The translations under genes and the position numbers were made by a program. Below the pieces are notes generated by a model. That model was not told the origin of the DNA and did no database searches. It saw only the letters and a list, made by a program, of their open reading frames with translations. From positions 1 to 51,701 of IMG/VR virus record IMGVR_UViG_3300045988_094113: a stretch of 51,701 nt of DNA; one strand, given 5' to 3'. This stretch comes from a virus. Position 1 is the first letter of the stretch. Each line of letters opens with the position of its first letter. Of the stretch, positions 7,739-10,519 are shown in pieces.

Positions 7739-7830
7739 TACACTAAAATGTAACTAAGTAGACACTTTTATGGAACATTGCATAATATATATGTGCTACA
7801 ATGTAGTCATAGCAGAAAGGAGTGAAAGTG

Positions 7831-8268
7831 ATGTACAATTATACACCATATGGAGTCGGAATGAGTCCATACCAACAACAGCTAACGCAAAACAGAATGG
7901 AACAATTACAAGGGCAATATAACAATATGTACAACCAGAATGTGATGCAAGGTCAGCAACAGCAGAACATACAAATGTTAAAAGGCAGACCAGTATCCAG
8001 TTACGATGAAGCTAAAGCGGCTATGATAGATTTAGACGGTAGTATGTTTGTGTTTACTGATATTGCAAACAAAAGGATATATACAAAACAAATAATGTTA
8101 GATGGTAGTGCAGAATTAAAGGTATATACATTACAGGAGCAAAACATAAAAGAACAAAAACAAAATACAGATTATGTTTTACAAAGTGATTTTGAACAGG
8201 CTATAGAAATATTAAAAAATCAGATTCTTGAATTAAAAGGAGTGAAAGAAGATGAACAAAAACTTTAA
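7831..8268 (+). CDS. Hypothetical protein, Q/N/Y-rich N-terminus
   Basis: ATG 7 nt after AAAGGAG; the track start at 7822 is GTG inside the RBS. Confidence 0.6.
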   Translation: MYNYTPYGVGMSPYQQQLTQNRMEQLQGQYNNMYNQNVMQGQQQQNIQMLKGRPVSSYDEAKAAMIDLDGSMFVFTDIANKRIYTKQIMLDGSAELKVYTLQEQNIKEQKQNTDYVLQSDFEQAIEILKNQILELKGVKEDEQKL

Positions 8269-8428
8269 TAGCAATCCTCTTTTTCAGAGGGCACAGCAAA
8301 TGGCACAGGGAAAGAGTGAACAGCAACTAGAACAAACGGCAGAGAACTTGTGCAAACAGCGTGGAATTGATATGCAACAGGCATTAAAACAGTTTCAACA
8401 ATTCAAGAAAATGTTTGGTATTAAGTAG
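8252..8428 (+). CDS. 58-aa Q-rich hypothetical protein (below ORF-track cutoff)
   Basis: AAAGGAG RBS 9 nt upstream; fills the 8269-8476 gap. Confidence 0.45.
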   Translation: MNKNFNSNPLFQRAQQMAQGKSEQQLEQTAENLCKQRGIDMQQALKQFQQFKKMFGIK

Positions 8429-8476
8429 GTATAAACCATAAGGTTTATATAAATAATATTTAAGGAGGTACTTATT

Positions 8477-9169
8477 ATGAGTATGGATGGAAATGGACTT
8501 AGTGTAGCAGATGCATTAGCACTAGGACGAGACAATGATGGTATGTTTGGGGATGGAAACGGCAGTTGGATTTTCTTCCTTTTCTTTCTCCTTGCGTGGG
8601 GTGGAAACTTTGGCAACTGGGGAGGTAATGGAATGAATAGTACAGCAAGTGCATATACCGATAGTGCAATCCAGAGAGGCTTTGACAACCAAGCAGTAAT
8701 AAACAAACTGAATGGTTTAGAGAGTGGTTTATGTGATGGCTTCTATGCAGTAAATACTTCACTTCTGAATGGCTTTAATGGAACACAGCAAGCCATTAAC
8801 AATGTAGCTGTAGCAGGTATGCAGAACACAAATGCACTTGCAACACAGCTTTCCGATTGCTGTTGCACAACTCAAAGAAGCATTGATGCAGTACGGTATG
8901 AAAATGCAAGAAACACTTGTGATATCGTAAATGCAATCAAAGCTGATGGTGATGCAACAAGAGCATTGATGACACAGAATGAAATTCAGAGTTTACGTGA
9001 TCAGTTACAGACAGCAAACTTCCAGTTGAGCCAGCAGGCACAGAACGCTACTCTAATTGCAACATTAAGACCTACGCCTATTCCGGCTTATCAAACTTGC
9101 AGTCCGTATGAAAGCGCACAGTTGTTTTCACATTATGGAACAGCCTGCAATAATGGATGCGGATGCTAA
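8477..9169 (+). CDS. Hypothetical membrane-anchored G/N/W- and Cys-rich protein
   Basis: 230 aa; AGGAGG RBS; helix SWIFFLFFLLAWGG flanked by GNG repeats; CCC triplet; C-terminal NNGCGC. Confidence 0.65.
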   Translation: MSMDGNGLSVADALALGRDNDGMFGDGNGSWIFFLFFLLAWGGNFGNWGGNGMNSTASAYTDSAIQRGFDNQAVINKLNGLESGLCDGFYAVNTSLLNGFNGTQQAINNVAVAGMQNTNALATQLSDCCCTTQRSIDAVRYENARNTCDIVNAIKADGDATRALMTQNEIQSLRDQLQTANFQLSQQAQNATLIATLRPTPIPAYQTCSPYESAQLFSHYGTACNNGCGC

Positions 9170-9222
9170 AGCGTTATTTGATGATTTAAGAGGTTTTCCG
9201 CTTATGCGTGATGAATTTGTAG

Positions 9223-9250
9223 GGGCGGTGAATAACCGCCCTTATTCGTT
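9223..9250 (+). terminator. Weak intrinsic terminator / attenuator inside the cassette
   Basis: gggcggt-gaata-accgccc then ttattcgttt. Confidence 0.45.
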
Positions 9251-9281
9251 TAATTAGAACGTTTAGAAAGGAGATTATAAT

Positions 9282-9656
9282 ATGGCTTGTATTTATTATA
9301 ATAACAATGGCTGTGGATGTGGTGGTTGTATACATTTTGTAAAAACAAATAGCGTAACATTAGTCGATAATGTTTTAATATTAAACATACCACAGGCAAC
9401 ATATAGTAACAAAGAAAAGGTATGTATTTGTATTGCACAAACAATACCAGAAATAACAAGTGCTGATACTGTAGCAGTAACAATAGGAGCAGGAGCAACA
9501 CAGTATGTATTGAGAAACAGGATTGGAAACAATGTCCATGCAGACCAGATACGAAGCAGAAGAGTATATCACACAAATGTAGCAACGGACACTGGTGTGT
9601 TTACGGTAAGTAGTTGTGAACTGTGCAATACAGCATTTAACTTTCCAACGATTTAG
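9282..9656 (+). CDS. Hypothetical Cys-rich protein (N-terminal NNNGCGCGGC)
   Basis: 124 aa; AGGAG RBS. Confidence 0.65.
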   Translation: MACIYYNNNGCGCGGCIHFVKTNSVTLVDNVLILNIPQATYSNKEKVCICIAQTIPEITSADTVAVTIGAGATQYVLRNRIGNNVHADQIRSRRVYHTNVATDTGVFTVSSCELCNTAFNFPTI

Positions 9657-9668
9657 GAGGTGTAAGCT

Positions 9669-10415
9669 ATGTATGAAAGAAACGGCGTAAAATATGGAGT
9701 AACAGAACAGGAACAAACAGGAACACAGGAAGAACAGCCATGGAGCAGAAAGAACGAACAAGGTATGCAAAGAACATATACAGGAATGAATGTAAACAAG
9801 CGTGAAAAAGAACAAAGTGCAGAACAAATTTATGTAGAACTTGATGAACATATGAAAAAAGCATTATGTTTTCATGAACAGCTTGCAGATTATTTTTGTT
9901 TCCTCGGATTGCAAGGTTTTAAGCGTAAATTAGAATATCAATATATGTGCGAAGTAGCAGAAGGAAGAAAGTTACACCACAAATATATAAACATTCACAA
10001 AAAGCTTATTCCGGTACATCAAATAGAAGTGATACAGTTTATCCCAAGAGAATGGAGTAAATACACAACAGAAGATGTGAACGACAATGTTCTACCAAAA
10101 TTTGTAAAAAGTGCAATAGAACAGTACAAAGAATGGGAAGAAGAAACAAAAGAACTATATGAGGAATTGTGGCAAAAGTGCATCAATGTTGGTTTGGTTG
10201 CCGATGCAGAATACATTAGTACGCTTGTAGAAGATGTTACAAAAGAACTCAAAAAGATAAACAGGATGCATGAACAGCTTAACGGAACAGGATATAATGC
10301 AGTAAGTATTCATGGTATGCAAGATAAATACCATGAAAAATATAAAAAGAAATACAATGAAGAATATACAAACAAAGAAGCAAAACAAATGAAGGAACAT
10401 AAAAAGAATAAGTAA
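9669..10415 (+). CDS. Hypothetical protein; Q/E-rich N-terminus, possible ferritin-like helical core
   Basis: 248 aa; AGGAGG RBS; LADYFCFLGLQGFKRKLEYQYMCEVAEGRKLHHKY loosely resembles a ferritin/Dps helix pair. Confidence 0.55.
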   Translation: MYERNGVKYGVTEQEQTGTQEEQPWSRKNEQGMQRTYTGMNVNKREKEQSAEQIYVELDEHMKKALCFHEQLADYFCFLGLQGFKRKLEYQYMCEVAEGRKLHHKYINIHKKLIPVHQIEVIQFIPREWSKYTTEDVNDNVLPKFVKSAIEQYKEWEEETKELYEELWQKCINVGLVADAEYISTLVEDVTKELKKINRMHEQLNGTGYNAVSIHGMQDKYHEKYKKKYNEEYTNKEAKQMKEHKKNK

Positions 10416-10422
10416 TATTTAT

Positions 10423-10478
10423 ATAAGCTATATATTATATATAATACTATAAAAGTAATATTGTAATATATAGCTTAT
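10423..10478. repeat. 14-bp perfect inverted repeat (AT-rich hairpin) at the late/early boundary
   Basis: ataagctatatatt (10423-10436) and aatatatagcttat (10465-10478), 28-nt loop, T-rich tail. Confidence 0.75.
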
Positions 10479-10519
10479 TTTATGTTTAAAAATATTTTTA
10501 ATTATTTTATAAAAAAGTG

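Follow-up and report, generated by a model that had tools for sequence, protein, structure and literature searches.

A conserved five-gene phage module with a constant helical subunit and an exchangeable head: a possible accessory spike or fibre of gut phages

Background

The tail-fibre or receptor-binding protein (RBP) loci Stf-Tfa of lambda and gp37-gp38 of T4 carry the gene of an assembly chaperone downstream of the fibre gene. I-spanins of the lysis machinery combine an N-terminal transmembrane (TM) segment, a coiled coil and intermolecular disulfides, an outline that recurs in one of the proteins described here. In this study, a cassette of five consecutive genes, g1 to g5, was analysed in the IMG/VR virus record IMGVR_UViG_3300045988_094113. 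The window, that is, the whole stretch of 51,701 nucleotides that was analysed, is a siphovirus-like phage genome of approximately 51.7 kb with nearly all genes on the + strand. The genes of the cassette are as follows:

7831-8268, + strand: g1, from the list of open reading frames (ORFs)
8252-8428, + strand: g2, 58 aa, overlapping the end of g1
8477-9169, + strand: g3, from the ORF list
9282-9656, + strand: g4, from the ORF list
9669-10415, + strand: g5, from the ORF list

The cassette is similar to fibre and chaperone loci in several respects. A conserved shaft (g3) is combined with an exchangeable distal knob; the fold of g4 resembles predicted fibre tips, and the alternative knob found in other phages resembles the C1q/BclA heads of collagen-like minor tail proteins. 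A small helical gene lies just 3' and is fused to a knob-like domain in one crAss-like protein, the cassette is located at the end of the tail block, and its composition is RBP-like. However, stalk and knob are encoded as two polypeptides, each with a Cys-rich end, a TM-like helix is present in the stalk, no virion-attachment domain is recognisable, and promoter, activator and terminators appear to belong to the unit itself. With g1 and g2, there are also two additional low-complexity partners, and one stalk is used across unrelated virion types.

Endospore appendages and exosporium fibres built from S-/L-ENA with L-BclA and from F-ENA with F-BclA (PMC12357932) provide a second comparison. The alternative knob resembles the C1q-like head of BclA C-terminal domains (CTDs; best PDB match 9H38), and the Cys-rich N-tail of g4 recalls the connector peptides by which subunits of those fibres are attached. 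Presumed cytoplasmic assembly without secretion signals, robust Lys-poor subunits and a gene arrangement suggesting major versus minor subunits are further likenesses. In contrast to these fibres, the module contains no DUF3992, DUF4183 or collagen repeats, g4 of the window is not BclA-like, and the module is encoded by phages, crAss-like phages included, and is nearly absent from bacterial chromosomes.

Class I fusion spikes (influenza HA1/HA2, retroviral SU/TM) share with the cassette a hydrophobic, Gly-rich peptide close to the start of a helical protein with a Cys cluster (g3) and a separate beta-sandwich head, with CxxC in 75 of 102 g4 relatives; crAss homologues of g3 are labelled 'spike protein/glycoprotein'. 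Unlike fusion spikes and spanins, g3 matches HA2 only at E 0.8-4 and has no C-terminal anchor, signal peptide, envelope or lipoprotein partner, and most carriers appear to infect Gram-positive hosts.

Taken singly, the parts recall familiar types (fibre knob, C1q head, ferritin fold, region-4 activator), and their combination appears to match no described system; a literature search that included the cultured carrier phages yielded no description of the module. Our analysis presents a conserved, horizontally mobile and self-regulated module in which an invariant Cys-tailed helical protein is combined with an exchangeable head resembling a receptor-binding domain (RBD). From sequence and predicted structure, we tentatively read this module as a late, activator-controlled accessory spike or fibre of gut phages, to which we assign a probability of roughly 35%.

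Results

Distribution and synteny of the module

The loci compared comprised 80 from IMG/VR, 10 from genomes and those of GenBank phages. A preliminary description of this DNA had called the cassette an orphan, which does not hold: at least 7,688 homologue clusters were obtained for g3, 1,831 for g1 and 289 for g4, and three of the five products (g1, g3 and g5) belong to PHROG families of unknown function. The genes also travel together outside this genome, a point on which that description had made its case depend, and they do so strongly, with g1-g2-g3 present in approximately 90 phage contigs. g1 adjoined g3 in 91 of 92 loci. The slot 3' of g3 was always filled, either by a window-type g4 (28 loci) or by a C1q/BclA-CTD-like protein of approximately 140 aa (62 loci), and the next slot held g5 (47 loci) or a DUF7841 protein (31 loci; Pfam 9e-25). 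Since no relationship was found by hhalign, g4 and the BclA-like knob, as well as g5 and DUF7841, are considered non-homologous replacements rather than divergent copies. Single-chain fusions of any two module families were absent among 100 loci.

Exact copies of window g1 were detected in 129 blocks of a public collection of metagenome and genome assemblies; the four places shown were contigs of approximately 50-54 kb, with at least one from a human-gut metagenome. No block has a contig above 200 kb, and hence there is no sign of integration. When 185,579 species genomes were scanned, 10 loci were found, mostly on phage-sized contigs of metagenome-assembled genomes; on this basis, an origin in host sporulation was rejected in favour of a phage gene set.

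Clear g3 homologues (phrog_16490, 1.8e-50) were present in the crAss-like phages cr116_1, cr52_1, cr125_1, cr1_1 and csAssE-Sib. These proteins keep the hydrophobic segment, the CCC cluster and the Cys-rich end, are the ones labelled as spike proteins or glycoproteins, and are each followed by a small beta-rich protein. In cr52_1, a DUF7841 gene (2e-33), misnamed 'RNA polymerase sigma factor/ubiquitin-like' in the record, lies 5' of the g3 homologue. The latter was called in two pieces (locus L097, 4545-5216 and 5304-5468) where the record has one coding sequence (4545-5468); a frameshift, recoding or an assembly error is possible.

Further variants of the layout were observed. At locus L101 (3438-3802, approximately window 8268-8477), which belongs to a gut-metagenome variant of the same phage, no g2 ORF was called and the gap between g1 and g3 was approximately 155 nt longer, which suggests a small insertion. 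Clostridium phage CS266P3 (locus L002, 7995-8961) has kept g5 and a 50-aa remnant of g4 and has lost g1-g3, so g5 can persist without the rest of the module. The locus of a Lachnospiraceae isolate (L092, 8001-9105) was the sole match whose contig (154 kb) far exceeds the size of a phage genome; with a truncated g1 and a C1q-like knob in two fragments, it probably represents a prophage copy in decay.

The constant subunit g3

From its N-terminus, g3 comprises an acidic tail, a hydrophobic helix flanked by Gly and Trp (approximately residues 29-61) and N/A/Q-rich helices; further along come an invariant CCC cluster and C148, a brief heptad stretch, the LRPxPxPAYxTCSPY motif and a Cys-rich C-tail (NNGCGC). 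The hydrophobic segment is an uncharged Gly/aromatic span of approximately 29 residues with the core WIFFLFFLLAW; in the alignments, all of these elements were conserved across the family, the span universally and the Cys-rich C-tail universally or nearly so. The protein belongs to phrog_16490 (3e-30), and its homologue clusters, counted at 90% identity, are all unnamed. g3 was the most conserved gene of the module, with 61-66% identity between lineages, while in the same lineages g1 was approximately 30% and g5 approximately 40% identical and the knobs were non-homologous; this is the conserved-shaft, variable-tip pattern of fibres.

PDB profile searches with two alignments gave nothing significant for g3. 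The HA2 matches formed a redundant block of influenza chains and are not evidence of homology, and such weak matches probably explain the spike label of the crAss homologues. Of the features of class I fusion proteins, significant similarity and a second hydrophobic segment or C-terminal anchor were sought in g3 and not found.

The hydrophobic span also bears on the main rival explanation, which we rate as only somewhat less likely than a spike or fibre, namely, that the module forms a membrane-anchored late complex on the envelope of the infected cell. g3 would then be inserted in the cytoplasmic membrane, either as a lysis accessory (spanin- or fusogen-like, or acting on holin/antiholin timing) or as a superinfection-exclusion or receptor-masking device, and g4 would be its regulatory or ligand-binding cap. 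The universal span with its strongly hydrophobic core and Trp/Gly flanks, the independence of the module from virion type and the size and topology of g3, which recall T4-type holin T or i-spanins, argue for such a complex, and the non-significant HA2-like profile matches and the 'spike glycoprotein' label were counted in the same direction. However, the flanks (an acidic N-tail and approximately one K/R per side) leave the topology unfixed, and an extracytoplasmic complex would be hard to build with g3 when g1, g2, g4 and g5 have no signal peptides. The very high conservation of g3 further argues against an exclusion protein specific for a host receptor.

The knob g4 and its alternative

g4 consists of a disordered Cys-rich N-tail (MACIYYNNNGCGCGGC) and an eight-strand beta-sandwich, which was modelled by AF2 with a predicted local distance difference test score (pLDDT) of 88.4 and a predicted template-modelling score (pTM) of 0.79; model confidence was low in the N-terminal 17 residues, which are Cys-rich. 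The protein starts MACIYY... and has no signal peptide before the Cys. Homologues amount to the 289 clusters mentioned above, or to 336 representatives at 50% identity. Among 102 members of the family, 93 start M-x(0-3)-C, three or more of the first 25 residues are Cys in 72 and, as stated above, 75 contain CxxC.

No significant match was obtained for g4 in PDB profile searches with two alignments. In the Foldseek search of BFVD, the g4 model retrieved its own family first and then predicted tail-fibre, RBP, collagen-like and hyaluronidase-fibre proteins (query-normalised TM-score, TMq, approximately 0.5; E 1e-5 to 1e-3). A crAss-like 'DUF7841 domain-containing protein' also matched g4 (TMq 0.63), and DUF7841 and a g4-like domain are combined there in one chain, which would link the putative chaperone with the knob. 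Of the homology to virion fibre proteins, which the preliminary description had named as evidence against its view, half was thus borne out: g4 is structurally similar to predicted tail-fibre tip domains but not similar to them in sequence.

The alternative knob matched BclA_C in Pfam at 1e-5 to 1e-6, below the 38-bit cut-off. Its PDB profile matches (E 2e-6 to 1e-5) were F-BclA-CTD 9H38 (2e-6) and BclA (9e-6), with weaker C1q and TNF-family chains, and a PHROG match to 'collagen like minor tail' was obtained at 2e-3; the knob is probably a distant member of BclA_C. About half of these C1q-like knobs also start MxC. Window g4, compared with BclA_C (PF18573), showed no Pfam match and no PDB fold match, and hhalign gave less than 1% probability against the BclA-like family.

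The likeness to exosporium heads brings in another explanation, in which the products form a cross-linked spore-coat- or exosporium-like, or prion-like, matrix coating virions, spores or debris; Q/N/Y-rich g1 and g2 would act as condensate or scaffold, g3 and g4 would be oxidatively cross-linked and g5 would perform redox chemistry. The alternative knob is most similar to the C-terminal domains of exosporium BclA and F-BclA, and N-terminal Cys-rich connectors attach S-/L-Ena subunits and L-BclA covalently (PMC12357932). However, no Pfam match to coat, exosporium or Ena families (CotZ, DUF3992, DUF4183) was detected in g4 and its 102 relatives or in the other products of the cassette, and Foldseek of g4 against the PDB returned neither Ena nor BclA. 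The module is nearly absent from bacterial chromosomes, as the genome scan indicated, and it occurs in crAss-like phages (Crassvirales), whose hosts, as far as known, are Bacteroidota that do not sporulate. In the anoxic hosts and habitat, oxidative cross-linking is not assured, and prion-likeness is a statement about composition. The impression of spore-coat and prion-like proteins recorded in the preliminary description is thus an analogy, and we regard the matrix as improbable.

The products g1, g2 and g5

As inferred from the alignment, g1 has a Q/N/Y/P-rich low-complexity N-terminus, an alpha/beta core of approximately 55 aa and a C-terminal helix, and its conserved core motif is KGRPVSSxDEAKAAMIDLDGS...IYTKQI.LDG. 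It falls in phrog_21718, its 1,831 homologue clusters are unnamed, and a PDB profile search gave nothing significant. GTG at 7822 is an alternative start; ATG at 7831 is preferred because an AGGAG ribosome-binding site and the N-termini of homologues agree with it. g2, a Q/M-rich peptide with the conserved helical end GKSxEQ...NL..QRG, showed only a weak match to the UBA-like TAP_C (0.017). It had been noted in the preliminary description as missing from the ORF track; it is a real ORF, conserved in 78 loci and overlapping the end of g1 in each.

g5 comprises a Q/E-rich N-terminus and a putative ferritin-like four-helix core (phrog_17879, 3e-4), and no Pfam match was found for it. In the PDB profile search, archaeal and bacterial ferritins were retrieved at E 1e-4 to 3e-4, with helices A-B convincing and helices C-D weak but colinear. 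Of the ferroxidase ligand set (E, ExxH, E, ExxH), g5 has an incomplete version: the invariant E95 occupies the position of the helix-B ferritin Glu ligand (E52), the partner His (H55) is Glu (E98), and the invariant ligand-type residues are H69, E95, E157 and E193 only. The earlier suggestion of a possibly ferritin-like core was thus upheld as a weak similarity (PDB profile E 1e-4) without a complete ferroxidase set. A ferritin-like g5 would suit the redox step of a cross-linked matrix. For DUF7841, the PDB profile search returned nothing significant. Searches of Pfam, NCBIfam and PHROGs with all five products gave no functional match, in agreement with the earlier failure to match them to any phage function.

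Amino acid composition

The composition had been described as rich in Q, N, G and C, and this was borne out. Q reached 15.9% in g1 and 22.4% in g2 compared with 3.7% in the rest of the proteome, C reached 3.9% in g3 and 6.5% in g4 against a background of 1.9%, and N and G were enriched in g3. The high Q content of g1 and g2 was counted for the matrix described above. The sum of Lys and Glu was the lowest of all 85 ORFs in g3 (2.6%) and g4 (4.8%), against a median of 19.7%; next came the RBP, a small head-region protein, the endolysin, the tape-measure protein, the holin and the major capsid protein. Lys and Glu were ordinary in g1, g2 and g5. On this basis, g3 and g4 look like exposed structural proteins and the other three like cytoplasmic ones, and the extreme depletion in g3 and g4, which looks extracellular or structural, weighs against a complex anchored in the host membrane.

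Regulation of the cassette

The cassette is bounded by terminators, contains an internal hairpin and is preceded by three small genes:

7046-7345, + strand: 99-aa single-pass membrane protein with a basic N-terminus, one hydrophobic helix and an acidic tail, first gene of the extended module
7345-7485, + strand: ORF of a strongly basic 46-aa peptide with a half zinc-ribbon, CPVCGK, at its end
7478-7711, + strand: 77-aa sigma-70 region-4-like helix-turn-helix (HTH) protein (Pfam and PHROG), candidate activator of the cassette
7710-7737, + strand: intrinsic terminator closing the tail/regulator operon, a 9-bp GC-rich stem (7710-7731) plus T-run, -14.6 kcal/mol, z -6.0
7761-7802, + strand: putative promoter region of non-consensus type, with GACACTTT motif at 7761-7768, CATAAT at 7781-7786 and extended -10 TGCTACAAT at 7794-7802
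9219-9245, + strand: hairpin separating g3 from g4, a partial terminator or an element of RNA stability, -22.6 kcal/mol, z -4.4
10423-10478, + strand: long AT-rich hairpin with UUUUAU behind it, marking the end of the unit on the downstream side, -20.8 kcal/mol, z -4.0

The five ORFs, the flanking terminators and the internal hairpin were all found where the preliminary description had placed them, and its separately transcribed block agrees with a unit that is bounded by terminators and has no consensus promoter upstream; as a whole, that description was confirmed in part and its interpretation supported in part. A hairpin and T-run terminator followed the sigma-like gene in nearly all relatives. 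A scan of 7000-10700 with Rfam gave only a chance snoRNA match (E 0.29).

The product of 7478-7711 matched Sigma70_r4 at 6.4e-9 (35.6 bits, cut-off 24.1) and Sigma70_r4_2 at 3.5e-7, both above the Pfam threshold, and was placed in PHROG families of transcriptional regulators and activators; the earlier call of a sigma region-4-like protein thus stands. It is not a complete sigma factor, because region 2 is absent. The gene was located directly 5' of g1 in 66 loci, and this linkage, together with an upstream motif shared by six lineages, strengthens its proposed role as candidate activator. The motif, [GT]A[TC]ACTTT at 28-29 nt 5' of the -10 hexamer, was found in the window and in loci L013, L007, L016, L026 and L087. 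ATACTT was present in 17 of 49 non-redundant upstream regions compared with 6.8% of background windows, and the ATACTTT-type motif with a -10 hexamer has a single intergenic copy in the window, at 7761. In other clades, the upstream sequences differ.

The best sigma-70 match upstream of g1 was TAGACA-16-CATAAT with a score of 10/12, consistent with the earlier statement that no consensus promoter precedes the cassette; of the 13 perfect TTGACA-N16-18-TATAAT sites on the + strand of the window, six lie at 10520-12450, just downstream of the cassette. A SigK-type promoter was also considered, since the window fits AC-17-CATAATATA, but was dropped because relatives do not retain it. The six downstream promoters are of the form TTGACA-N17/18-TATAAT and lie within 2 kb (10520, 10815, 11172, 11736, 12056 and 12450); each precedes a small ORF, and several have the spacer ...CAACCCTTTG... 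in common, so that 10520-12480 looks like an early-promoter array.

Given the conserved linkage and motif, we propose that the cassette is transcribed from a non-consensus promoter that would depend on the sigma-region-4-like protein whose gene closes the tail operon. Late activators of the RinA/ArpU class are the nearest known kind. Similar to them, the protein is a stand-alone region-4 HTH encoded directly before the unit that it is proposed to activate, and it has weak NCBIfam matches to RinA (7e-5) and ArpU (8e-3), both below the family cut-offs. Unlike in that class, the proposed target would be an accessory module and not the terminase/structural operon.

The internal hairpin is conserved along with the module. 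Among 60 non-identical g3-to-knob spacers, 53 contained a hairpin with a folding energy of -13.5 kcal/mol or lower, compared with 20 of 180 control windows of the same length from the same loci (Fisher 1e-28, a value that overstates independence because the spacer sequences are related), with medians of -19.4 and -8.6 kcal/mol, respectively. The stem sequences vary among clades. These results fit the attenuator suggested earlier or an RNA-stability element, and the hairpin may yield more g1-g3 than g4-g5 product. An excess of g3 over g4 would suit a membrane complex with g4 as its cap, and expression of a major and a minor subunit, typical of fibre or pilus operons, would suit a cross-linked matrix.

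Homologues of the 99-aa membrane protein, which has no Pfam match, were located 5' of the cassette in approximately 35 related loci, and many relatives (for example, at locus L025) have kept the basic CxxC peptide, located between the genes of the membrane protein and the sigma-like protein. The trio of membrane protein, basic CxxC peptide and region-4-only HTH (7046-7711) thus recurs 5' of the cassette in relatives. Its layout recalls a split anti-sigma/sigma pair, and it is conceivable that an envelope signal might gate expression of the cassette, although this is pure inference. The inclusion of a single-pass membrane protein in the extended module was counted in favour of a complex on the host envelope.

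Genomic position and lysis genes

In a Pfam census of the neighbourhoods of 40 non-redundant loci, tail genes (Sipho_Gp37, SPP1_Dit) and endolysin domains (Amidase_2, Amidase_3, PG_binding_1, ELLD, NlpC/P60) were found upstream and replication genes (SNF2 helicase, primase, dUTPase, ERF, PolA), often on the opposite strand, downstream; the module is therefore the last unit of the late-strand block. It comes after the tail genes and, where lysis genes adjoin those, after the lysis genes too. In cr52_1 and cr116_1, it is embedded among structural genes.

The preliminary description had placed the cassette where a lysis module would normally be, a wording that implies missing lysis genes. The window has its lysis genes elsewhere, between terminase and portal and not after the tail genes:

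42182-42433: r1t-type holin (Phage_r1t_holin, 5.9e-14), adjoining the endolysin and outside the cassette
42449-43792: endolysin, Amidase_3 plus six ChW repeats (3.5e-49)

These genes refute, for practical purposes, the explanation of the cassette as a non-canonical lysis module of the window phage. A location after the tail genes, the usual place of holin and endolysin in many Firmicutes siphophages, and the hydrophobic helix of g3 had spoken for it. However, besides the canonical pair in the window, Dulem virus 36 has the lysis arrangement of the window and the cassette directly after its receptor-binding protein, the C. perfringens phages XP41-N3 and vB_CpeS-17DYC have an annotated amidase and holin with the cassette further downstream, and no muralytic (peptidoglycan hydrolase) domain was detected in g1-g5 with Pfam or NCBIfam. 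The identity of a canonical lysis cassette was likewise rejected, as a hydrolase is absent from g1-g5 and the endolysin-adjacent holin sits elsewhere. The case carries a caution: absence of lysis genes after the tail genes does not mean a novel lysis system, since here the canonical module had moved.

The ChW repeats make a Clostridia-type host likely for the window phage, which accords with a sporulation-related matrix. For a complex acting at the host envelope, the neighbourhoods are favourable, because endolysin domains are among the commonest upstream neighbours and the module lies 3' of a holin and an L,D-carboxypeptidase in cr116_1 and 3' of a LysB/FtsL-like protein in cr52_1. On the other hand, a complete holin and endolysin are already present in the window, Gram-positive hosts have no outer membrane for a spanin, and a lipobox partner is missing. 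A two-component spanin was accordingly dropped: g4 has neither lipoprotein signal nor lipobox, the host is probably of Clostridia type, and only the i-spanin-like outline of g3 fits.

Other features of the window were recorded. The large terminase gene is split into a Terminase_3 N-part (37748-38821) and a Terminase_3C end (39638-39946), with an HNH/NUMOD1 homing-endonuclease ORF (38928-39515) in between; the same order occurs in Dulem virus 36, which suggests an intron or an intein-free split. A DnaG-type primase (13673-14659), a PolIII-alpha-type polymerase with PHP, DNA_pol3_alpha, finger and HHH_6 domains (16124-18850) and RecA (19403-20326) are also encoded.

Discussion

We favour an accessory spike or fibre because the shaft stays constant and the tip varies, and because of the folds of the knobs, the location behind the tail genes, a downstream gene that resembles a chaperone gene and a composition similar to that of virion proteins. 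In such a structure, g3 would be the invariant stalk, Lys/Glu-poor and helical, with a probably membrane-acting hydrophobic segment and a Cys-rich C-tail. g4 would be the exchangeable beta-sandwich knob with a Cys-rich N-tail, replaced in other phages by the C1q/BclA-CTD-like protein, and stalk and knob may be joined by their Cys-rich tails through disulfides or a shared metal site. g5 or DUF7841 would act in maturation or as a chaperone, as the product of a gene directly behind fibre genes usually does, and g1 and g2, with their cytoplasmic composition and low-complexity regions, would be assembly partners. The complex has no secretion signals; its assembly would take place in the cytoplasm, and it would leave the cell together with the virions when the separate holin and endolysin bring about lysis.

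Several observations weigh against a spike or fibre. The AF2 monomer of g3, built from a 22-sequence alignment, had a pLDDT of 40 and was unusable, Foldseek of the g4 model against the PDB gave no significant match, and the likeness of g4 to fibres appears to hold for predicted structures only, at a TM-score of approximately 0.5. No virion-docking (baseplate, neck, capsid) domain was recognised in the module products, and the literature search found no virion proteomics or expression data for any carrier. Virion fibres do not usually carry a TM-like helix that is very hydrophobic and, as here, universal. The same conserved g3 is also found in unrelated virion types (siphovirus, crAss-like and ~118-kb phages), whereas the domain that attaches a fibre normally varies along with the virion. 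Structural genes do not typically have a promoter, an activator and terminators to themselves, and an attenuator lowering knob output does not fit a simple 1:1 stalk:knob complex. In the C. perfringens phages, the cassette follows the lysis genes and an antirepressor and adjoins recombination genes, not structural ones.

A further reading is an undescribed appendage or envelope device common to Clostridia and crAss-like phages, namely, a two-piece Cys- or metal-linked spike with a fusion-peptide-like invariant subunit and a swapped head. The device would be made 'ultra-late' under the region-4-type activator and would possibly be gated by the membrane protein and the zinc-ribbon peptide as a sensor. 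We consider it unlikely; if true, tailed phages without an envelope would possess a spike that acts on membranes during entry or release.

The module spans Firmicutes phages and crAss-like phages, and every part of it is annotated 'hypothetical'. The region-4-only activator, the non-consensus promoter and the internal hairpin together offer a test system for a separately timed unit after the structural genes. As a conserved late module with an exchangeable RBD-like head, the cassette is a good candidate determinant of host range, adsorption, release or gut persistence.

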